A stretch of 63,866 bases of DNA, counting the filler, from Licmophora abbreviata (taxonomy: Eukaryota): assembly GCA_900291995.1 (NCBI GenBank). It is 12 parts of 12 records of this genome, joined end to end, with 100 filler letters (N's around TTAATTAATTAA, not from the genome) between each part and the next. Parts side by side here need not be neighbours in the genome. Positions count along the whole stretch, not along the records: positions 16,258 to 22,111 come from OLMU01000820.1; positions 22,212 to 24,133 come from OLMU01000821.1; 10 more parts are not named here. The stretch is one strand, 5' to 3'. Position numbers and translations under genes: made by a program. Position 1 is the first letter of the stretch; each line of letters starts with the position of its first letter. Of this stretch, positions 9,278 to 34,036 are shown one piece after another. The notes beneath the pieces were generated by a model, which was given only the letters and a program-made list of their open reading frames with translations, searched no databases and was not told the origin of the DNA.

Positions 9278-9789
9278 TTAGATGCAATCAACCAAAATTG
9301 TAAGAATAAAATTGTGTCGCGGGTGAATCAGGCTCGAACAAAGATATAGCTCCGGCATCACCATCGTCAAAGCTGGGAACTCTGAACTTTCACAGATTGT
9401 GTGGTCATCACACGCCTCTGTCAGAAGTTCAGCGAAGAACCTCTCGTCTGTCACACAAGACACATACCAAGTAACACGCATGCTTCGTTACCATAGATNN
9501 NNNNNNNNNNNNNNNNNNNNNNNNNNNNNNNNNNNNNNNNNNTTAATTAATTAANNNNNNNNNNNNNNNNNNNNNNNNNNNNNNNNNNNNNNNNNNNNTA
9601 CCAAGTAACACGCATGCTTCGTTACCATAGATGCATTTATGGCTGAATGTATTTTCATAAATAGGATTATCCTTAGAAGTGACATTTCGGAGTCATTCTT
9701 TTCTCCTCTCACACGCGCGATTCCAAACAATGAAAAATACAACTGGACGATGATGACAGCGGCTGTCTATTTGGGAACCCTTGAACACC

Positions 9790-13972: not shown

Positions 13973-16498
13973 TTACTTGAACGCGGCGACCTTTCTGGTC
14001 TTCACAATGATACCAGCGACAGAGGCAAGCTTGTAGAAAAGCGCAATCCCGAGAAGAATACCAATATCTTGGGCATACGTGTCCTCCGAATCAATAACAG
14101 GGAACACCCTGGAAAGACCATCCAAGATGTCAGTTCCATCGGTGCTGTCCACACAAACCGCCTGGTTCAAAGATTGCTCACTGCCTGGGGTGCAGCTGAA
14201 GAGTAGTGATGGAAGATGGGTGCGTGAGCTCACTCGCGTTCATTCGTCAGACGAGGGAAAGCCAAAGCCCACACAAGCATCGGCACAACATACCTATCCC
14301 AATTATCAATCTCTGTGAAGAGAACGTAGTTGAAACTCCTCACGTAGTACGAGTAAGGCATGATGTAGTAGAACAGTTTGAATGGCCAGTACAAATCGTC
14401 GAGGGCAATCAAGAAGCCTCCAAACAAAAATCCAGCGAACCAAACATTCATGAACTGAAGCATACCAAGGATCGGATCGTCGAACCAAACCGCGAGGCAT
14501 TCAGCAATACATTCAAACGTGTAGATCGTAACCGACCACAGCAGTGTCAACAGACCGAAGGCAGATCCTGGGTACTTCTGAACGACAAAACCAGGGATTC
14601 CAAGAGCGAAAAGAGAAAAGATGTACATAATGGGGAGGACGAGTATGGTCTTCGCAAGGACGTAGCTCGCAGCCGTCACCATTCCATTCTTGGTTTCGCG
14701 CTGAATACTCTTGAACTCGTCGTTGAGAGCATAGACGGCAACAACACCCACTACAACAAAGAAGAGCAAGGAATGTGGTAAGATCCCTGCCTACACACAC
14801 AAAATGCATAGAGACAAGGGAGCCAAACGCTTACTGTTCGTTGGGACTCCGATGAACCAAATAATGAGCCACAACTTGTTGGTCGTTTGAGCCTGCTTGC
14901 TGTCACGCGCGTACCAGTACACGAAGGAAAACACCAAGTTGGACGCGAGGAAGATAGCGCAACGGCCAAGATACAAGATCGGGTCGCGGATGATGAGCGT
15001 CGCGTGACGACGGAACATGATCTGCATCTCGTTGAGAAGACTCGTTCCTTCAATGTCGACCACTCCTTCTTGCTCGTCATCTTCACCAGTGAAGCCCTTC
15101 TTTCCGTGCGAGGAAGCAAGAGCCTCGGGCTTCTTTTCTTCCCAAGTGTTCAAGATCTTGTCGACTTCCTCGCCCGTGGAAAAGTCAGCATTGACCAGAT
15201 CAAGAAAGTGCTCAGCGGGGTTCATGGCCGGGGGCAGCGGGTATCCGATACTCTCAAAGTAGGGAGAAGCCTCTTCTACATTACCGGAGAACGCCTCACG
15301 GCCCTTGGACATGATCATGACCTGGTCAAAACCATTGTACACCTTGGTGGAGGGCTGATGGATGGTACAGAACACGATGAGACGCTCGTCCTTGGCGACA
15401 CGGATGATCTCTTGCATGATGTTAGAGGCCGCGGCAGCATCGAGTCCACTCGTCGGTTCATCAAGGAAGAGAAGGGTCGGCTGCTTCAACAAGGCAACAG
15501 CGATCGAGAGACGGCGCTTCTGACCTCCGCTCAAACGGGCGCAGCGCGTGTCGGCACAGCTGTCCATGCCCATCTTGGCGATGATCTCGTCAACAATGGC
15601 GGCGATGTCGCCCTTGGAAGCCACCTCGTATAGCTGAGCACAGTACGTGAGTGTCTCGCGGGTCGTAAGGTAAGGCCAATGCTTGTCTTGCTGCTTGACA
15701 ACTGATTTGATATATAGCGAGAATATGATGAGCAGAGCGAAACGACAAAAACAGATTGCGGAAACAGATAGTGACTGTGTACCTACCAAAGCAATGCTTT
15801 TTGAAGATCTTGTCCGTCATGGGCACACCGTTCAGCGTGACTTGTCCAGTAGGGGTGCCATAGAAGGCGTCAAGCGTCAGGGCGCTGATCAGAGTGGTCT
15901 AGGGAACAAAAGAGTGGGGGGCCGACAAGAAAAAGTAAGCAAATGACAAGTCTCTCTTTCTGTCGTGTACGACGGACTGGGTATTCCCAAACCGTAATTT
16001 CAGCAACGTACCTTTCCGGCACCACTGGGTCCCATGACCGCCAACACGTCTATATAAAAGGGACAAGCGGACAAGGAAAAAGATCCGAGGGGGGTGTCAG
16101 ATGGTTTCGAGCTACTGTGCAGTCATACAATCCCGAGGCGAAAGAGAACTCCTCGGCNNNNNNNNNNNNNNNNNNNNNNNNNNNNNNNNNNNNNNNNNNN
16201 NTTAATTAATTAANNNNNNNNNNNNNNNNNNNNNNNNNNNNNNNNNNNNNNNNNNNNAAACCCAAAGGCCCTCTTTGAACTTACGTCCCCACTTGACCGT
16301 TCCACTAACGTCTGTAAGGATGTTCTTCTTGTTGTCTTTCTTTCCAACGATAAAGTTGATATCCTTGAAGCGCAGGACGGAGGATTCCATCCCGCTGCTG
16401 TGCGCGGAGTGCAGGCGCTTGCTTTGGGACGTGTTGAGCTTGTCTTCGTCATTGGCTTCTTCCATCTCCACCGCGGGGTCCTCCTTCGTGCTGGTCAT
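13973..16498 (-). CDS. ABCG (White-type) half transporter, multi-exon, spanning the gap at 16158-16257
   Basis: Walker A 'MGPSGAGK' (about 16035-16012), signature 'LSGGQKRRLSIA', 'LFLDEPTSGLD', 'CTIHQPS', 'NPAEHFLD' and a C-terminal TM domain. GT-AG introns. Confidence 0.9.
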
Positions 16499-17008
16499 GG
16501 TCTACTATACGAGTAAGTCTCACGAGAAGATCACAGAGATCAGCCTACAACGACGATACTCTCGATGCTGTTGGCGGCAAAAAGTGAGAGGCATCATCCA
16601 TGTCACATTCTGGCGCAGTTAGAGCCTTACGTACATTTCCTACCGGTGTCCACGTTGGGGCCTTTCTCCGGATCTGTGCCGGATTTGAACCTCGAAATTG
16701 TTCTTCGAACAGCGTTCGTTCTGCTCGTACGTCATCACATTTTGTCACATGTCCGCTCTTGCGCCAATAGGCTTGCATGCCATCTGCTATTCCACAAGAA
16801 AGGAATAGGAACCTAGTATATACAGTAGGTACGCTTTGTTGGCCTTATCATACTACGATAAGCTGCAGAGATGGGTTTATAGCTTTTCTCAGTCATTTCC
16901 TGTACGACGTAGTGTAACTGTAACTCTACTAGTTAGTACATCGTAGCTCACAAAGGCTAGCTAGCTCAAGTACGTGTGTGGTTCGACACTCGCTTCCACA
17001 ATCGCTCT

Positions 17009-18565
17009 TCATTCGTCGCTCTCATCAGCGTCTAGTTCTGGTCTCCATTCTGCAGGCATGCCATGAAATGCCATATTGTTGTACACATCTCGTAGGAACT
17101 TCTTCGAGTCTGTAAGCTCATCGCTTTCCAGGAGCTCCACCAGTCTCCAAGCTTGGACATTCAGTGGGATTTCTGGTTTCTCTCGTGCACCAACGCCTTC
17201 CTTCCACAATGACTCGACGACGCGGTGAATATAAGCTGTCGATCGACCGCCTACAAGCCAGCACCAACCATCGACGCTTTCCAGCTGTTCCAATCTGTAC
17301 GACCCGAAAGGCATGTCAGGATCGTCTTCCAACGCTTCGATTTCGCCCTCCAAGGGCAGAGGGAACTCGGTAGTAATGACAATTGTGCCAGGTTTGCATT
17401 GCCAGCCAATGGATTTACTTATAGCGGCCATCATGTCGCTTGACATGCAGCTCGAAAACACAAACACCAAGTCAGCATCGCCATAGTATGTGTACGGATC
17501 TTCAAACGAGCCACAGGTGAATTCGACGGGTGCCAGTCGAAGCTCCTCGTTCATGCCGTCGGTGCGGGGCAAAACGTATCCAACGTTTGCTTCTTCATCA
17601 TCCATTACTGCTTCTTCGTCGCTGAGAGCAATCGAATCCTCTACAGACTGTTCTTCAACACCGTCCTCGTCAGGGGCGTCGCACCCTGCCCATTCGTTCG
17701 GGTCCGAGGACTCGACGCTCTCGCCACCGAACTCCCCTCGAAGTTCATCTAGCCAGTCATGGTCCCGTACTTTCGCAGCTCCAAACGGCCTCCAAATTGT
17801 ATCTACGTCATCGCTTTCTTCCGCTTGTGAAGTATGGTCGCCGCATTCTTCGCTAGAAGCAGGCTGCGTTTCATCGTGTCGCCGAACACACTTGTCACGT
17901 ATCTCAACAGCTAGGTCATGGATCGAGGGAAGAACCTCCACGCCCCGGACAAGTTTCCACTGATGCAAAGCAGCTGCTGCCAAAACAAGTCTTCCCGTTC
18001 CTGATCCAATATCACAAAATACCTTATCCTTGTTCCAGTTCAATATCTTCTCTGTAACATCGCCGAACGAATTATAGTGTTCGACCGCACGGTCTAGCAA
18101 TGTCGCAAAGAAGTATAGATCAAACTCGCCGTAGGTAAAATGTTTAGGTGGATCCCGACCGCTGTTCACGTAGGGCCAGTATCCATCGGTTCGACTCGCC
18201 GCATTGCGTTTCTCCAAGTCTTCGGGAGGAAACAGTTTGTTCAAACCGTCAAGGACCGAGGCGTATCGAACGCCTGAGAGCGACTCTTGGTTGGGGTCCG
18301 CATTCGGGTCTTCTATCGGAATAGGATGACGTTCCTCGCTGAGTTTGTTCTCGTTAAGGGTGGATGTAAATGTGTGTCGACCTAAGGCTTTCCTTCCCCA
18401 TCCTGATGGCTGTCGCGTCTTCGCTGCCAGGTCTGGAGTTGCAACTGTGACGGTTCCTTGGCGCCAAAAGCGCGACGACGGAGCGACAAACGCATCGACA
18501 ACCCATTGTATCAGTAGATATAGGAGGATCAGAAGGTATGCCCGAGGGAGTGAGGCACGTGTCAT
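17009..18565 (-). CDS. SAM-dependent methyltransferase (DOT1-like fold), predicted plastid-targeted
   Basis: 'FTYGEF', 'FCDIGSGTGRLV', 'RGVEVL', 'ADLVFVFSSC'. Signal peptide ending 'VDA-FVAP' (ASAFAP-type). Confidence 0.7.
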   Translation of the reverse strand: MTRASLPRAYLLILLYLLIQWVVDAFVAPSSRFWRQGTVTVATPDLAAKTRQPSGWGRKALGRHTFTSTLNENKLSEERHPIPIEDPNADPNQESLSGVRYASVLDGLNKLFPPEDLEKRNAASRTDGYWPYVNSGRDPPKHFTYGEFDLYFFATLLDRAVEHYNSFGDVTEKILNWNKDKVFCDIGSGTGRLVLAAAALHQWKLVRGVEVLPSIHDLAVEIRDKCVRRHDETQPASSEECGDHTSQAEESDDVDTIWRPFGAAKVRDHDWLDELRGEFGGESVESSDPNEWAGCDAPDEDGVEEQSVEDSIALSDEEAVMDDEEANVGYVLPRTDGMNEELRLAPVEFTCGSFEDPYTYYGDADLVFVFSSCMSSDMMAAISKSIGWQCKPGTIVITTEFPLPLEGEIEALEDDPDMPFGSYRLEQLESVDGWCWLVGGRSTAYIHRVVESLWKEGVGAREKPEIPLNVQAWRLVELLESDELTDSKKFLRDVYNNMAFHGMPAEWRPELDADESDE

Positions 18566-19587
18566 TGCGGAGAGAAACCCATGTTCACAACTTCGATTGC
18601 ACGACGACGATGAAGACGCTTAGACAATGAACACGACGAGTTGAGTTGCGATGAATCTGCGACCAACCAAAACTTCATAACCTGATCACCGCCTTATTAT
18701 CAACCAAAGTTCGAAGTCAAACGTCTTAGCTCAGCGCTTATGTACTAGCATCCCATCAGTCTAATTGGCCCAGGTCGCGTTTCTCATACAGTACTTCATC
18801 AGCCACACTGATCAGCATCATCGCAATAAGGCGCGCGTGAAATGCAGTTTGAAACGAAACGAGCTTGTACCGGTACGACTTACAGACGTCGCCAAATCTT
18901 CGCCGGGGGAGGGCGGCCGAAATCGGCTCTCGATCGGCAAAGGTTAGACTAGTGGCAATCGTACGAAGTCCTGGAGGCATGCTTTGTACCCTGACTGGTC
19001 TCTGTACAATTAAGACCTTCCTGTATGTAGCTAGCTACATCGAGTAGCTTGCTCTGGCTAGTAGAGAAAGTCGAGTTCTACGAGCTAGTACTAGTCGCTG
19101 CTACCCTAGTCTAGAGCCACTCACTCCCTAAAAGTTGCTACAGTAGCACTGATCTCGACCAAATCGCCAAGGTACGGTACGTTCCTCTCGTTGCATATTG
19201 AATATACCACTAAAGTGGCTAGAGATGCATCGTGATAGGGACGAGTTTTCCGGTGGCCGAATGTCCGGACCGCAAGAGTGATAGGATCAACGATATAACG
19301 AATGCAAAACCCCGCGCTCGTATCGAGCAAAAATATTTTGAAACAACACGTAAGAAGCGTATCTTTGTGCATAGAACGCCAGAAAATACATCAGAACTTC
19401 AACTCCAACGTACGTCACCATACGTCCCCTCACTTTCAGCGAAGGCAAGGAGGTGACTCCGGAAGCGAGACGATCCATCGGTTGTCACATCACATCGCGT
19501 TCTCGTACAACGGTCATCGTTCGCCATCACCAGGAAGCTAATTTTGGCGTCCCTGAGTTTCTCGTGGGATTTCCTTGTGTGGACAAG

Positions 19588-22500
19588 ATGAAATTGCGAC
19601 TCTGCGGTGCCGTAATCTTGCTCTCCGCTACGAGCGGCGCGTCCTTTTCTTTCCAACAACAACTCCCACAAAGCTCTACAGCATCGCCAGCCCCATTAGC
19701 CACCAAATTCATATTTCCTGAAGATGTTCTGCCTCCTGATCGGGCTGAGAGTACTCTACTTATCGGAAAGAGGGAAGATTTGCAATTCTTCGACATTGAA
19801 AATGAACTTGAATTAGACGTTGGACGGGAGACGAGGGATGCGCTGCTGGACAGCATGGGACGCACCGGCACAGGATCGACATCGACCCTGGTAGGGGCTC
19901 ACAGTCTCATGATCTGCGCTGTGCCCGATGAAGTGTCTCGAAATAATCACCCTCTTTCGGTCCACTCAATCACGGAAGCGATCGCCAAATTACCCGAAGG
20001 ATCCTGCCGACTTGTCTTTTGCGGACGTGACATGGAAGAGCATTGTCGTTCTCTGACATCGGCTGCTGCCAAGGCATTTCCCGTTTACTCACAAAAAACC
20101 ACAAATGACGCGTTTAAGGAGCGCTACGTTCATGTCTCCTTCTTGAATGAAATGGGCAGGCCTGTTGAAGCCGACTTTGAGTACTTGCAGGCGGTCGTAG
20201 AAGGCGTGCAGCTCGCAACCCGACTCGTCGACATGCCATCTGAAGAGCTCACCACTACAGACTATGCCGAGGAATGTAAGAATATCGCCTCAGAGCTCGG
20301 TGTCCCTTATATGGAGATCGTAGGGGAAGACGTGAATGTTCAGGGCTATGGCGGACTGTATGGTGTGGGCAAAGGCGGCTTGAGCCCTCCGCGCCTCGTC
20401 GTTCTCGACTACACTCCGCAATCGGGAGTCTACAAAGAAAGCATTGCCTTGGTTGGAAACCGCATCGTCTACGACACGCCTGAGGCGGGTGATCAATTCA
20501 TGGATCGATCCAAAACTGGCGTACCAGTGATGAAACACGGCATGGGCGGGTCTGCCGATCTACTCATGGCCTTCTATAGTGCCGTCAGACTCGGTGCGAC
20601 CAAGAGGATCGTTCTAGTTCTTGGCCTGGCAGAAAATGCCGTTGTTGGACCTAACGCCCTAAAAAAGGACGACATTCTTAAGATGTATTCCGGAAAGAGC
20701 GTTGAGGTGAGCAATCTGGAAGCCGACGGAGGACTTGTCTTGGCAGACGCCGTTGCATATGCGACGAAACACATCGAAGGTCTCGATCTCGTCATCGACA
20801 TGGCTACGCTGACCGATTCTCAGCTCATGACAACTGGCAAAAAGCACGCGGGAATTCTTGCTAGCTCAAAACAAGTGGAAGTGAGAGCAACGGACGCAGG
20901 CATGCGCTCTGGGGACTTGGTCTTTCCCATGCTGTACGCACCGGAGATGCTCAAGAAAGAATTCGACAGCAGAGTTGCGGATATGAAGAATTCCCCGAGT
21001 GATCGGTACAACGCGCAGTGCTCCTGCGCAGGCCATTTTATTGAGTCTCATTTGGACGAGCGATACAGAGGAGAATGGCTTCATATTGATATGGCTGGGC
21101 CAGCTTGGAAAGAGGAGAGAGGGACTGGATTCGGCGTCAGCTTGATCCTCTCCTTGCTCGACGTGGAATCAAATAGGATCCCAGGAAATCTGCCAGCGCG
21201 CTCGGTACCAGGAGGATTCGGTGCACAGCCAATGCCAGGACCATTCGGGGCACCATCAGGTGCCAGAGACCGACCTCCCATCGCCGGCGATGTCTCTGCG
21301 CCGTTCTTCCGTCGCCCCTTGGGAAACGAGCCAATTCCTCCGCCGCCGGCATTCTTCGAACGCCCTGTGGGCAATGATCCCGGTCCACCGCCATTTTACG
21401 ACCGTCCCATTGACGTACCTTCCAAAGTAATTGAAGGTCAAGAGAGAGAATTCGCGCCGAGGCTTGCCGATACACTCGCGGAGGTTTTCATCCTTGTTGA
21501 CGACGGTGAGCCCCAATATACCGGAATGTCGGGCTCCGAATTTGATAGTAGGATGAATAAGTTTCGAGCGTTCGGTGGCCCTGGAGCGCCCGGAGGCAGA
21601 GACTTCCGATCCGGCATATCGCGTTCCGACTTCACTGATCGAGTGGCTAGGGAAGGCGCCCGATGGGGAGCGGACGACTACCGGTTCGGTGGTCCTCCTC
21701 CGCGCGATTTCGACAATCGTATGGGCAGAGATAATCGTATGGGTAGGGAAGGGGACAGGTTTGGGCCCGGCGACTTTCAGTTCGATAGCCCACCACGCAC
21801 CGACCTCGATGATCGCATGTCAAAGTTTCTAGGAAATCAAGCACGAAGGAACGCTGGCGAAATCACTGACACGGGAGGACTCAACGCGGGAGCAAGAGAA
21901 CGACCGCCTTCCCCCGACTTCAATGATCGCTCGGGTGATTGGGAAGGAAATATGGCTGGATTCGCGCGTGACAGGAGTGGCTTGGGTGGTTCTCGCGACG
22001 GTGATGGCATGGGCGAGGTTGGTCGCTCTCCGCTGAATGCTGATCTCATGGCTGGAGGCAATGCCGCTGATCGGCGTATGGGGGACCCTGGTGGCTCTCC
22101 ACCGAACGCTGNNNNNNNNNNNNNNNNNNNNNNNNNNNNNNNNNNNNNNNNNNNNTTAATTAATTAANNNNNNNNNNNNNNNNNNNNNNNNNNNNNNNNN
22201 NNNNNNNNNNNCGTGATGATCGGAGCATGAGAGACCCTGGTGGCTTTCCGCCGAACGATGGCCGTATGGGCGGGCCTCGTGACGATCGGGGCATGAGGGA
22301 TCCCGGTGGCCGTATGGGCGGGCCTCGTGACGATCGGGGCATGAGGGATCCCGGTGGCTTTCCGCCAAACGATGGCCGTATGGGTGGACCTCGTGACGAT
22401 CGGGGCATGAGGGACCCCGGGGGCTTTCCGCCAAACGGCGGCCGTATGGGTGGGCCTCGTGACGATCGGGGCATGAGGGATCCCGGGGGCTTTCCTCAGA

Positions 22501-22856
22501 ACGGTGGTCGCATGGGTGGGCCTCGCGACGATCGAGGCATGGGGAATCAGGGACCAAGGCTGAGAGACAATAGGTTCGAGCTTCCGCCGCCTGACTTTGA
22601 CGAGCGACCTCCTGTACTGCCGACTGTACAGGACACTAAAATTGTGGGGGTGTTCACAAGCTACGAAGCAGCCAAGCTGGGAGCAGAGGAGTATGTCTCC
22701 AATATGTTCCGAATGCGTGACATGAGAATGCTGGAGCGTGTCAACTGGTTCGGCGATGGTTGGTTCCATCAGGAGCCGGACCGCAGTCGCCCAAATCAGC
22801 GAGTGCGCATGAGGAAGATGGAGCTGGATCGGGTCAGCCTCGACGGGCGGTTGTGA
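19588..22856 (+). CDS. M17 leucyl-aminopeptidase (NPEPL1-like) pseudoenzyme with signal peptide and long repetitive low-complexity tail; spans the gap at 22112-22211
   Basis: NPEPL1-like motifs 'VSRNNHP', 'GYGGLYGVGK', 'LAENA', 'DMATLT', 'VADMKNS..DR.NAQCSCAG', 'WLHIDMA', 'GTGFGV'. Metal ligands are substituted. The same repeat type lies on both sides of the gap. Confidence 0.8.
22213..22541 (+). repeat. Coding tandem repeat, 66-bp unit (MRDPGGFPPNDGRMGGPRDDRG), about 5 copies with one truncated; more copies probably collapsed in the gap
   Basis: Visible directly in both DNA and translation. Confidence 0.9.
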
Positions 22857-23327: not shown

Positions 23328-23934
23328 TTATTTGGGGATCTTGTCCTCCGGGTCTATACACCGTACGTGAGCAACGAGTGAGAGACGGCTTCAGTCGAGC
23401 TTAATTCTTGCACACGTGAAGATGCAAGTCTTGATTCATTGTTGTGTATCGTACTTACAGTCAAACGCCGACGTGATACCTAGAATGCGGTAGGCTTCCT
23501 TGTTGTCCATCCCACGCTTCTTGGTGAGATAGGACTTGCAGGTGAATACGTTGTCGGTCCATCGATTCGCCGCTTCCTTGACAAGCTTGAGTTCTTTCTC
23601 CAGGTCCGCCAAGGCCTGCGGATCATTCTCCTTGAGCGTTTCGAGTTCTTCTTCCAATGCACGACGGTCCTTGGAAAGTTCCGCGAGCCGCGCGAGCTTG
23701 GCGACGCGGTCGTCGCCTTCGTCATCTTCACGGCCCCTCTTGGCGTCGGCGAGCTTGGACTCGGCGTCGGAGACTCGCGTCTTGAGAGCTTCAATGGAAG
23801 CGAGGGTGTGCTCGTGTTGAATCTGCAGGAGGCGATCCTTCTTGGCAGGGAAGGACCAGAAGTAGTTGGATCCGCCAATCTTTTCCTTGTCGACGAGTCC
23901 GTCGTCCACGAGAGAGCTGTTGACGTCGATGATG
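23328..23934 (-). CDS. MND1: Meiotic nuclear division protein 1, 5'-partial (exons 23934-23459, 23353-23328)
   Basis: 'LVDDGLVDKEKIGGSNYFWSFP', coiled coil, 'NDP', 'AANRWTDNVF'. Splicing gives the C-terminus 'AFDYPEDKIPK*'. Confidence 0.9.
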
Positions 23935-25204
23935 CTGAATGTGAAGGTAGGTGAGAGCAGAGGAAGAGGCGTGGTGTTAGAAACCCCGTATCGTGAATGG
24001 TGAAAGAAGTGCCAAGCGAGTGGATGACATAGTGAACATCATCGATCCGTATCATGTGTCATTGGTGACCTGTCGTGCACGACTAGAGACGCAGAGAGAA
24101 TATCTTGCATGGATTCTGACGACTGCACTCACGNNNNNNNNNNNNNNNNNNNNNNNNNNNNNNNNNNNNNNNNNNNNTTAATTAATTAANNNNNNNNNNN
24201 NNNNNNNNNNNNNNNNNNNNNNNNNNNNNNNNNTACTACGTATACTTGATAACTGCACGAGCAACAGTATCGTACTCGTACAGCTGTAGCCTGCCCTCCA
24301 CCAAATCTGCACCATGTGATAGACCTGGAGTACTCTACTACCTGAAATGCATACGGCCGTTTCATGCTTGCACATCTGCAATAAAGTGTACTGATGTCAA
24401 CACTACCTATCAGCCGGCTCATCATGGGATTGTAGACTTGACTCTCTAGTAGAGACGAGCCAGGTCGTGTGCTACCTCGCTCCTTGTAGCTAGTAGCTAC
24501 CACATACCTCGATAGGCGACGCAATGTTCGTGTTGTCAGAGTGCAGCCGATACAGAACACACTACAACTGTCGATCGCAGTGCTCATGGTGCCGAAAGAT
24601 GTCACACCTTCCTCTGCCTCTGCCTGAGACTCCGAAGGCCGACCACGACCACACTGTTCCGCACCCAGCTCCATCATAGCTTCTTGTACGCATGACATCG
24701 CATGGTCGGTCGTCTGATGTCATCGTAGCCTTTCTCTCTCTCTAATCACCAGCTATAAAGATGCTTCTAGTAGACGGTTTAGGTAAAACTATCAGTACCG
24801 GTACCATGGTTGGCGTTGAGGTTTTTAAAAAAGGAAACTCAATATCGGTACTTCACCAAGAGCGAAACTGGAAAATTCACCTCTAGTCTACCTGGTATGG
24901 TTCTCTATGAGGTACCGATACCGGTACCGGTATGGTTATGAATTCGTACGGAGCGTAGGATGGTATTTAGCTCTGTGATAAGACCCAGGTTCAGGTACCG
25001 GACTAACGACAATCCCGGTACCAGGTATAATGTCGTACCTTGTACCTGGTAAAAGGTACAGAGAAGCTACCAGGTAGGGTAAACTCCTCAGTGAATGAAG
25101 CAATGCACATTCCACCATTGTTACAGCATACCTACACAGAAACAAAAACCAGAAAACTAATTTAGGCAGCTACCGTGCAAGCATAGTCTACTCCCGTACA
25201 CATG

Positions 25205-26059
25205 CTACTCGTCGTACGGTTCTGTGGGCATGTTCGATAGCTTGTGAATCAATCGAATGGCGGGACTGTCACGTTGCATACTCGCAACCTCGAACACGTC
25301 ATCCATTCCGAGCCACTGAAGTGGGCGTATTAGGTTCATGTCTGTGAATCGACGTAAATCATCAATATCATAGTCCGGCACTAGGATGAGCGACCCCGTG
25401 TCAGCCTCGTCCGTTCGACTGAGTTCTGCAAGTTCATTCCAACAAATGGAGAAAAGCGAGTCAAAATTCTCAATAGATCCCCCCGAATTGTTCTTTACCA
25501 CATGAAACCTCGAAACAACGAGCATCCTTCTACCTTCCTCTAGGAAGTGCAGGTCGAGTTCGTCTTCCTGTGTTTCTTCGTTTACAGGAATATCAATCAA
25601 CGATTGCTGCACGGAGTCCAGGAAAGCCGCAAGAACCGACCGGTCGCAATCGTCAGTTGGAATGCCTTGCAGTCGTTTCCACGGCGCGGTTGATTCCGTA
25701 AATTCAATCTCATCTCCATGCGACCCGCCTAGAAAACTCATAGCCGGTGCGTTCGAACTCGTGGCCATTGATCGAAACAGAGGCGACCATTCGTCGTTGG
25801 CGGTAAAGAATTCTTGCATGGCACCCTCAGAGTCAATTAAATCCCGAATAATGTTAGTCTCATACGTCTTGTCGGTAATGCTTCCAGCACCGAATCCCTT
25901 GCCTCCATCCCGATCGCTGCCTCTGCTAGCGGACGACTTCTTCGCAGTCAAGCGAGTGGTCGACGTGCCAGCGATGAGCGACCAACCATCGGGCGAAACG
26001 ACAAAGCCCAGCGTTCCTGTTGCTAGACAGAACGATGCAAGAACAAAAAATTTAGTCAT
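25205..26059 (-). CDS. Hypothetical protein, predicted plastid-targeted
   Basis: 284-aa ORF with signal peptide followed by 'G-FVVSP', an S/T/R-rich transit peptide and a 'GKGFG' motif typical of algal plastid proteins. Confidence 0.6.
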   Translation of the reverse strand: MTKFFVLASFCLATGTLGFVVSPDGWSLIAGTSTTRLTAKKSSASRGSDRDGGKGFGAGSITDKTYETNIIRDLIDSEGAMQEFFTANDEWSPLFRSMATSSNAPAMSFLGGSHGDEIEFTESTAPWKRLQGIPTDDCDRSVLAAFLDSVQQSLIDIPVNEETQEDELDLHFLEEGRRMLVVSRFHVVKNNSGGSIENFDSLFSICWNELAELSRTDEADTGSLILVPDYDIDDLRRFTDMNLIRPLQWLGMDDVFEVASMQRDSPAIRLIHKLSNMPTEPYDE

Positions 26060-26414: not shown

Positions 26415-27341
26415 CTATTGCAAATTTGCATCGTCACCATTGACAAATAGAAGAATACCGTGTTCTTTCAGGTCAAACTGGCCCCTATCGAACGACCCGT
26501 CTTCGATTGCCTTGACAAAGTTCCCGAAGCTCTTTCCGATAGACGAGCGTATCCACGCCTGCTCGTCGTCGACGGGACAAATACCGTGAGCGCAGCCTTC
26601 GTCGGTAAAGACGCAATGCGACGGAGGGTTGTGAAAGAAGCGAGCATCATTCCGAATGGCGTATAGTACACGCTTGTCCTTTTCGCTGGCTTCATATGCA
26701 GCCTTGGCAGCCTTGTCTACCGAAACCAAGCAGGTTGTCTTAACGAAGCCCCAGTACATGCCTGGTATTGATACCTGACAGTAGGAATCCACTCGGTACG
26801 GATCCAAGCCGAAGAGCCCAGACGGCTCAAAGTCATAGAGAGTAGAGCCTTTTTTCGTCTTTAGAGCCCCCATGGCAGCGCATCCCCCGGACGAGTGTCC
26901 TCCGACAATGAATCCGTGCGTTGGCATTGTGTCACACACAGGAACAATATCCGTGAATCGATTTACAATCTCATTGGCAAGCCGGGCAAACCTGATGCTA
27001 TTTTGCTTGGTGAACCACCTTCCTGGAGAAGCATCTACTATCACCACAACGATCGAAGAATCCGCCTCGAGAATGGCACCCGAGACTTTGTCGTAGTCAC
27101 CAACCGTCATGCAGGTCCCGACGCCCAAAATCAAGACGGCGCGACAGCACTCTCCGTTGTGACGATCGTCGCCGTCGTCATAGTGGTAGCGAATCCTTCC
27201 AGCCGGAATCGTCACTGTCTCGCTTTGCACCACCATTGAGACAGCATCCGTACCTGTATCGGATTGTTCAGGAATTGAAGTGGTGCGTCTTATACCGGTG
27301 ATATTGCATCGCCTCCCCGCCATCAACCCATCATCCATCAT
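26415..27341 (-). CDS. Alpha/beta hydrolase, chlorophyllase-like
   Basis: Nucleophile elbow 'VGGHSSGG', acid motif 'LFGLDP' and His motif 'SHCVFTD', in the order seen in chlorophyllases (GHSxGG / LDP / H). Confidence 0.55.
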   Translation of the reverse strand: MMDDGLMAGRRCNITGIRRTTSIPEQSDTGTDAVSMVVQSETVTIPAGRIRYHYDDGDDRHNGECCRAVLILGVGTCMTVGDYDKVSGAILEADSSIVVVIVDASPGRWFTKQNSIRFARLANEIVNRFTDIVPVCDTMPTHGFIVGGHSSGGCAAMGALKTKKGSTLYDFEPSGLFGLDPYRVDSYCQVSIPGMYWGFVKTTCLVSVDKAAKAAYEASEKDKRVLYAIRNDARFFHNPPSHCVFTDEGCAHGICPVDDEQAWIRSSIGKSFGNFVKAIEDGSFDRGQFDLKEHGILLFVNGDDANLQ

Positions 27342-27644: not shown

Positions 27645-28606
27645 ATGTTNNNNNNNNNNNNNNNNNNNNNNNNNNNNNNNNNNNNNNNNNNNNTTAATTA
27701 ATTAANNNNNNNNNNNNNNNNNNNNNNNNNNNNNNNNNNNNNNNNNNNNTGCGAGACATTGCCTGTATGCTCAACGAGGACCCGCCCCGGGAGGAAAAGG
27801 CCAAGATTCGCGCCGAGGCTTTGATTCGTGAGGACAATGCCGTCGAAGCATATGAAATTTTGCAGCTCGAGTGTGAATTGCTCTCGGAACGAATCAAGTT
27901 GCTGGAAGTCAGTCGCGAATGTCCTCCTGATCTAGTCTCGTGTGTTGCGACCATCATGTGGGCCAGCGATCGAGTCGACATTAAGGAACTTGGAATGATT
28001 CGCAAGCAGTTTCGTGCCAAATATGGCAAGGACTTTGAGGCAAACGCCATCAACAATGTTGGTGGAGTGTTGAATGAGCGAGTGGTATCGAAGCTGTCGG
28101 TGCAGCCTCCTGCGGCGTACCTGGTGCAGACGTATCTGGAACGAATTTGTGAGCAGTACGAGGTTAGCTGGTCACCCAAGGTTGCTGTCACAGCCTCGGG
28201 CATGGCGGAGCCCATGGCTGCTCCTGTTGGCTACAGCGTACAAGTCGCTGGAGGAACTGGACTGGGAGAAGTTCAAGCCGAACAGATGCAGATTCAGACG
28301 GGCGAGGCATCATCTCCGTCCGCAGAGGACAAGTCTCAACCTCCGACTCCTGTCGTCAACGCGACGCCCTACGTACCATCTGCGGACGACAACCATGACT
28401 TTGCGGAGGTAGATATCTTTGTTCCGCCACCTCCGTCTGTTCCTCCGATGGCACCATCAGCACAAGTCAAGCGCGACGACGATGATCATGGCGACGAAGG
28501 CGGAGACGATACCGCAGCGACAAACGGTAGTAGTGGCGGCGACAGCAGTGCCATGGGTTCGTCGTACGCTGATCTGGCGGCACGCTTTGACAAACTAAAA
28601 AAGTAG
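27645..28606 (+). CDS. IST1: IST1 (ESCRT-III-associated, regulator of Vps4), N-terminal part hidden in the gap
   Basis: 'EKAKIRAEALIRED..EAYEIL.L.CELL..R', 'KELGMIRKQFRAKYGK.F', 'VN.RVV.KLS..PP' and a C-terminal MIM1-like 'DLAARFDKLKK'. An ATG sits just before the gap at 27645. Confidence 0.88.
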
Positions 28607-33809: not shown

Positions 33810-34036
33810 TAGGGGCGCTACTATAACTTTCGCCCTGTGATTTGTCGCAAGGCCAACGCACTGCGGAGTTCGACGCTTGTTCACAACACTACNNNNNNNN
33901 NNNNNNNNNNNNNNNNNNNNNNNNNNNNNNNNNNNNTTAATTAATTAANNNNNNNNNNNNNNNNNNNNNNNNNNNNNNNNNNNNNNNNNNNNCTGCGGAG
34001 TTCGACGCTTGTTCACAACACTACCGTACTATAAAC

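Follow-up and report, generated by a model that had tools for sequence, protein, structure and literature searches.

In a 63,866-nucleotide (nt) stretch of DNA from the diatom Licmophora abbreviata (assembly GCA_900291995.1; hereafter the window), we identified an apparently intronless gene that by sequence encodes a catalytically dead but maintained M17 aminopeptidase, followed by a long low-complexity tail and a small terminal domain. The terminal domain appears to be split, with its first β-strand on one contig and the remainder on the next, such that most of the 'tail' would be a loop pinned at both ends. The left open frame (841 amino acids, aa) starts with an ATG at 19588 and is still open where the contig ends, at 22111; the right one (214 aa) begins at 22212 and closes with a stop codon at 22854-22856. 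Between them, 22112..22211 is a pad of fixed 100 nt (44 N, TTAATTAATTAA, 44 N) that separates contigs C820 and C821 of a fragmented, 29 Mb assembly. As the identical pad occurs 11 times in the window, its length is no measure of the true distance between these contigs. Read as one protein, the chain has at least 1,060 aa.

Several observations establish what the peptidase part is and what it has lost. It carries a Peptidase_M17 match at aa 209-520 (E 7e-71; 239.5 bits against a Pfam cut-off of 25), and its AlphaFold model retains the M17 fold, with 289 residues at a predicted local distance difference test (pLDDT) score of at least 90 and apo TbLAP-A (5nsk) as the nearest structure (Foldseek E 1e-39). 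Only the loops at 298-315 and 461-473 are poorly predicted. Six of the seven metal-binding and catalytic residues that define an active M17 enzyme are altered (N, D, R, G, E, D and G for K, D, K, D, D, E and R); all seven are intact in each of the 112 homologues tested for them, none of which shares any of the changes. In bovine numbering these seven positions fall within 250-336. The spacing of K288, K300, D311 and R374 in trypanosome LAP-A agrees with that set (PMC5557676). Other invariant columns changed far less often (10 of 86; Fisher p 7e-5), and many of those ten flank the active site. Codons 291, 296, 307 and 382 are identical in environmental contigs, one of whose source runs could be the sequenced sample itself. 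The suggestion in the first-pass annotation that this peptidase is dead is thus well founded.

The same genome encodes an intact paralogue (G000:C488) at 66-70% identity; the best database homologue reaches 59%. Database homologues, 111 in all, came from a near-length search (E 1e-100 or better, top 8,000 candidates scored, proteins of at least 462 aa). In a tree of 23 rows (21 of the 111 hits from the nearest clades and outgroups), the dead gene is sister to its own paralogue with support of 100/98. A quick tree of 53 rows agrees, and the nearest named homologues in these trees are from pennate diatoms (Amphora, Seminavis). On this evidence the gene arose by lineage-specific duplication of the intact NPEPL1-like M17 aminopeptidase gene of this genome. 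It has evolved sevenfold faster (branch length 0.68 versus 0.093). The paralogues differ by a non-synonymous distance (dN) of 0.23 and a synonymous distance (dS) of 2.4 (Nei-Gojobori, near saturation); 56% of 177 four-fold sites differ, or ~1.05 after hand correction. Pairwise dN/dS is ~0.1-0.2, and that of the dead branch ~0.17-0.39 by hand arithmetic that assigns to it 88% of the amino-acid change and half of the synonymous change. These low ratios and the retained fold argue for a maintained pseudo-enzyme and not a decaying gene.

A maintained pseudo-enzyme could act as a regulatory subunit, entering mixed oligomers with the active paralogue and either damping its activity or tethering it via the tail. 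The close identity of the two proteins and their shared plastid-type leaders would suit such a role, as would the concentration of invariant-column changes at the active site, which suggests that subunit interfaces may be kept. However, sevenfold faster evolution may have altered those interfaces, the two poorly predicted loops add to this doubt, and regulation alone would leave a selected repeat of more than 300 aa unexplained. We regard this role as unlikely.

The terminal domain is the second unusual feature. The first-pass annotation described more than 500 aa of low-complexity sequence after the M17 domain, ending in a short folded domain. There are indeed 529 visible residues (315 left of the pad and 214 right), but only ~435 are low-complexity and ~95 are folded; the domain is real but begins further upstream than supposed, 580 nt left of the pad. 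When the last 103 aa are used as query, they find 10 weak relatives (P0004-P0013; E 9e-9 to 9e-4), all unnamed, stand-alone proteins of 77-285 aa. Every complete relative has an N-terminal strand motif that the 103-aa query lacks. A profile of this motif, built without the window sequence, scores 20.0 bits at aa 632-643 (leave-one-out range of the ten members, 5.9-36.6), a score reached by none of 5,000 shuffles. This is the best of 86,990 six-frame positions in the window, the next scoring 12.4 bits, and none of 57,290 positions in M17 homologues comes within 8 bits of it. In a family hidden Markov model (HMM), the strand 1 stretch aligns to profile positions 1-16, weakly when taken alone (E 0.052), and the right side covers positions 20-108 (E 1.5e-20). 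A strand is also predicted at aa 635-638. The modelled relative P0004 (pLDDT 79) has a strand at 2-9, a low-confidence loop, a strand at 31-37, a helix at 40-54 and a strand at 90-97, and the protein described here has the family's N-terminal strand motif, LP..QDT.I.G core, helix, DW..EGW motif and last strand.

With strand 1 (21481..21516) left of the pad and the rest on the right, the repeats would sit within a loop of this domain, of at least 333 visible aa compared with ~5-34 aa in relatives. The 'repeat arms' proposed earlier, if meant as free arms, do not survive this result. The domain is single-copy in the genome and has a net charge of +2 (11 Arg, 6 Met), compared with -9 to -21 in eight full-length relatives; this drift towards Arg and Met matches the make-up of the loop. 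Comparing the repeats with the domain's own loop motif gave a best score at aa 648 (9.9 bits; next 9.1 and 8.1), which is only suggestive of an origin of the repeats from that motif.

Profile comparison places the terminal domain within a small, DUF7336-like (PF24024) family of eukaryotic proteins that has no name. The domain scores 13.8 bits against DUF7336 and its best relative 23.6, below a gathering cut-off of 25, and 8 of 11 members of the family alignment have such a match, all below the cut-off. DUF7336 phage proteins appear among weak Foldseek rows at E 0.018 or worse. The best fold match has a Z-score of 4.1, no Foldseek row reaches E 0.001, and searches for a sequence relative with a solved structure returned none. 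The family itself is varied. P0005 and P0161 have two tandem copies of the small domain with acidic or Gly-rich spacers between them, and four stand-alone members (P0010, P0013, L016:2301-2753 and L018:340-786) begin with IDL(T/C) motifs and basic KRQK/KRAR clusters, which we take to resemble SUMO-interaction and nuclear localisation signals and which would hint at a nuclear donor family. The first ~18 residues of P0012 and P0049 resemble the N-terminal tail of histone H3, and these proteins are possible histone mimics.

Both sides of the pad very probably encode one protein, given the domain split across it, the degenerate 22-aa repeat units at the left contig end and the real contig order at other pads. 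At two of the ten other pads the flanks overlap by 32-34 nt (34 nt at 9499-9598 and 32 nt at 33893-33992), so no sequence is hidden there and the contig order is real. The last 43 aa of the left contig score 87 against the array (0 of 5,000 shuffles; top shuffle 85), and the degenerate left units (two copies, aa 799-840) also resemble it in DNA over 126 nt. The earlier description of an array broken by a gap holds as far as these units lie left of the pad, but the 'gap' is the fixed pad and has no measured length. To keep the repeats in register across it, the hidden sequence would have to be 17 nt longer than some whole number of units. An artefact or decaying gene, whether unrelated genes joined, a spliced-out insert or a pseudogene, is very unlikely. 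In its favour, nothing spans the pad, the M17-tail junction lacks outside coverage and no orthologue was found. Set against this are the split domain, a repeat that starts left of the pad, the overlaps at other pads, 841 codons that stay open although synonymous sites are near-saturated, and a left insert that stays open in only 9 of 20,000 shuffles. We also considered the insert as an intron and rejected it: the best acceptor, at 22630, would delete LP..Q, which is conserved in the family, and the variation within the array is synonymous in character. Thus, neither of two outcomes envisaged earlier as fatal, that the two sides are different genes or that the tail is spliced out, is borne out.

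The low-complexity region is dominated by six residues: Arg, Gly, Asp, Pro, Met and Phe together account for 58% of residues in the linker, 64% in the left insert and 90% in the right insert, compared with 31% in the M17 part. The first reading had reported about five copies of a 22-aa tandem repeat, and we find four full copies, one shortened to 16 aa and a 5-aa fragment right of the pad (Tandem Repeats Finder: period 66, 3.7 copies, 89%), in addition to the two degenerate copies on the left. Among the four full units, 13 of 15 variable bases fall at codon position 3, with synonymous variation at 11 codons and non-synonymous variation at 2; the remaining two forward frames have 0-1 silent changes versus 13. 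This excess of silent codons argues that the repeat is selected as protein. Of the shorter motifs noted earlier, D(F/L)D.RM recurs exactly as claimed (aa 707 and 739), whereas PPPF(F/Y).RP occurs in exact form only once (aa 600) and in the looser form F(F/Y).RP three times (aa 573, 589 and 603). The looser pattern (D/E)(F/L).(D/E/S/N)R has five occurrences in the left tail and one right of the pad. The observed counts of both looser patterns, which were picked after viewing the sequence, are reached in none of 20,000 shuffles. The five left motifs are 26-38 aa apart, and three lie on predicted short helices. The fold index is negative from aa 641 to 841 and in most of the sequence right of the pad, and Ile, Leu, Val and Cys make up only 2-5% of the repeat region; on fold index and composition the region has the disordered, repetitive character of Rubisco linkers.

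The composition of the array (20% Arg, 17% Asp, 29% Gly, 15% Pro, 10% Met) raises the question of whether the protein binds nucleic acid through Arg/Gly-rich repeats, as part of a plastid nucleoid or RNA granule. M17 proteins do moonlight in DNA recombination and kinetoplast division (PMC7948507, PMC5557676). However, there is no RGG motif, and the Arg of the array is offset by Asp, leaving the array nearly neutral (net +3 over 111 aa), and we consider this function highly improbable.

The leader points to the plastid. Residues 1-19 include a hydrophobic core (9-residue mean up to 2.6), and the ATG at 19588 is the only in-frame ATG within 19375-19600; two environmental runs have a 1-nt deletion at 19447, which suggests that the open stretch further upstream is non-coding. 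The following segment, aa 20-44, has no acidic, one basic and six Ser/Thr residues in 25, with Phe at +1 if cleavage follows aa 19, the pattern expected of diatom plastid presequences (PMC4329603). By inspection, and with the cleavage site placed by eye, the leader appears to be of plastid type, in keeping with the organellar location first suggested. Of the 111 homologues examined, 56 have a long N-terminus, and by a crude rule 27 of these 56 have plastid-type leaders. The start of the paralogue, truncated where its contig ends, looks plastid-type too, so inheritance of the leader is probable. By the same rule, bipartite plastid-type leaders are found in many diatom NPEPL1-like aminopeptidases (P0051-P0160).

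Low-complexity repeats are common in diatom wall proteins, and a secretory-pathway protein, destined for the endoplasmic reticulum, periplastid space, silica vesicle, wall or mucilage and using its repeat as a spacer or adhesive, would share the signal-peptide-like start. The Phe-led, acid-free, transit-like segment speaks against this destination, as does the presence of 3 Lys versus 64 Arg in the linker and insert, silica proteins being Lys/Ser-rich. Although low-confidence plastid calls have a specificity of only 0.82 (PMC4329603), we consider secretion improbable.

We tentatively favour a plastid pseudo-peptidase that, like the Drosophila S-LAPs, would have a structural role, as a matrix or scaffold, a reading that is tenable but falls somewhat short of probable. 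Most likely, a duplicate of the peptidase gene fused with the one member of the small domain family that this genome encodes. Once imported into the stroma of the plastid, M17 subunits would assemble as trimers or hexamers into an inert hub, and the terminal domain would fold by taking in strand 1, so that the repeats form a closed loop. Through its Arg/Met/Phe motifs and short helices, this loop would then engage in many weak contacts, among these elements or with a stromal partner, yielding a structural matrix or condensate scaffold. In a bolder and distinctly unlikely version, a new architecture for such scaffolds, the dead M17 oligomer would display several closed repeat loops, and the split domain could form either within a single chain or with strand 1 borrowed from another, which would cross-link hubs into a network; in its boldest form this network would be the pyrenoid Rubisco linker of a lineage lacking PYCO1.

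Several points weigh against a plastid scaffold. The weak step is the oligomer, which may go with loss of the metal ligands, because metal-ligand mutants of Plasmodium M17 are impaired in hexamer formation (PMC7948507); metal-free trypanosome LAP-A nevertheless crystallises as a hexamer (PMC5557676). Charged residues are mixed more evenly in the insert than in its shuffled versions, which does not favour self-association through charge blocks, and aromatics are few in the loop (Phe 4-7%), with no Tyr or Trp in the array. The pLDDT of the tail is low, but that part was modelled without an alignment and is thus weak evidence of disorder. Plastid targeting was judged by inspection. When contigs of four public runs were aligned to 19300-22111, the left side, they gave 12 short pieces (11 near-identical), none of which extends as far as the contig end. 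Neither a read across the pad nor RNA evidence turned up, and 21163-21509 is covered by no environmental contig in these runs, so the M17-to-linker junction rests on the assembly alone. Finally, a dead site or long tail is found in none of the 111 database homologues, and protein and metagenome searches found no M17 fused to a relative of the terminal domain.

Other searches likewise returned no orthologue. A search among longer proteins gave one match, a tandem double M17; this is P0003 of Achlya hypogyna (1,023 aa). Metagenome scans found 0 of 195 candidates with the terminal domain as query and 3 of 61 with the family alignment, all stand-alone. When the genome was searched with the left tail and with the terminal domain, this gene was the sole match, and the repeat pattern gave five matches here and one two-mismatch match in a bacterial-looking contig. 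Three contigs of the assembly (C2794, C3853 and C5019 of G000; L003, L006 and L015) are bacterial-looking, with dense prokaryote-type genes. The ESM Atlas gave only sub-0.9 leads, in unnamed ascomycete clusters.

Features of the dead M17 gene (positions count along the window).
Feature	Position	Strand	Basis or remark
Signal-peptide-like leader, aa 1-19	19588..19644	+	Hydrophobic core; sole in-frame ATG
Transit-peptide-like segment, Phe-led, aa 20-44	19645..19719	+	Composition; cleavage site placed by eye
M17 (NPEPL1-like) fold, dead by sequence, aa 38-526	19699..21165	+	Pfam, AlphaFold, paralogue
Altered active site	20458..20733	+	K291N, K307R, D318G, D378E, E380D, R382G; D296 kept
Pro-rich linker, aa 527-631	21166..21480	+	22.9% Pro; three F(F/Y).RP motifs
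Predicted β-strand 1 of terminal domain, aa 632-643	21481..21516	+	Family motif profile, HMM, predicted strand
Left part of putative loop insert, aa 644-841	21517..22111	+	Five spaced motifs; two degenerate 22-aa units at end
Fixed 100-nt pad, C820/C821	22112..22211	.	Same pad 11 times in window
22-aa tandem array	22212..22544	+	Full units at 22227, 22341, 22407, 22473; 16-aa unit at 22293
Loop end and remaining terminal domain (β2, helix, β3)	22545..22856	+	Stop 22854-22856; family HMM

Nearby genes include a divergent neighbour at 17009-18565 (-) whose product has a plastid-type leader and matches DOT1-like methyltransferases weakly, though above the cut-off (E 9e-7). Mnd1 lies at 23436-23960 (-), Ist1 at 27752-28606 (+) and an ABC transporter at 14791-16500 (-), and none of these three forms a functional cluster with the dead M17 gene. 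Open frames at 25205-26053 (-) and 26415-27338 (-), of 282 and 307 aa, have no Pfam match; the first has a plastid-type leader.

Rubisco condensation in diatoms beyond Phaeodactylum is an open question, and linkers cannot be found by homology. A repeat protein that is under selection, apparently directed to the plastid and built on an enzyme-derived hub offers a concrete candidate. As this diatom's linker, it would bind Form ID Rubisco through its spaced helical motifs, and its hub would add valency in the pyrenoid; we assign this reading a slim chance. Known linkers are lineage-specific and share no sequence, this protein has six spaced motifs, three on predicted helices, and the fragmented genome yields no exact match to PYCO1 sticker-coding sequence. 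Conversely, the visible tail contains no published Rubisco-binding motif of EPYC1, PYCO1 or PPAP28, although linkers converge and the absence of such motifs leaves room for the role. Motif spacing is 22 aa in the array and 26-38 aa on the left, compared with ~50-60 aa between stickers in known linkers, PPAP28 being a published exception. The visible mature chain has a net charge of -27, and the word 'peptidase' does not occur in the main text of a study of the Thalassiosira pseudonana pyrenoid.

Apart from pyrenoids, the scaffold we favour would mean that M17 peptidases have twice, independently, become structural proteins, and would illustrate clearly, in the one species from which it is known, how a repeat region can expand within the loop of a domain. 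Structural proteins derived from dead M17 enzymes have been described, and so have repeat linkers; we found no description of a dead M17 combined with a repeat and a loop-expanded split domain in the open-access literature searched, and a relative may sit unremarked in pyrenoid proteome tables.

Compared with known systems, the protein is nearest by sequence and fold to NPEPL1-like and LAP-A M17 enzymes (PF00883; 5nsk; Caenorhabditis elegans LAP1, 2hb6), with which it shares the whole two-domain fold. It differs from them in the six changed catalytic residues and in a C-terminal extension of at least 529 aa that is absent from all 112 homologues. With the linkers EPYC1, CsLinker, PYCO1 and PPAP28 (PMC10288592, PMC13655443, PMC10927497, bioRxiv 2023.10.26.564148), it shares lineage restriction, an apparently plastid-type leader and disordered repeats with short motifs, but it has a large folded hub, a shorter period, looped repeats and none of their motifs, and is acidic overall whereas PYCO1 is basic (isoelectric point 10.03). 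With DUF7336 and P0004-P0013 it shares the strand-loop-strand-helix-strand order and conserved motifs; those relatives are stand-alone and acidic with short loops, whereas the domain here is basic, fused and greatly expanded in its loop. The precedent for such a structural role is Drosophila S-Lap1-8, duplicated M17s with altered metal and catalytic residues (six in S-Lap6) that serve as structural material in sperm mitochondria (PMC6388916). Here too an M17 duplicate has lost catalytic residues while its fold has been selected. Descent from the insect clade is not indicated, as the gene is sister to its own paralogue in a tree that was built without S-LAP sequences; it would instead be an independent, single-copy product of a diatom NPEPL1-like gene, set apart by its plastid-type leader, looped repeat and extra domain.

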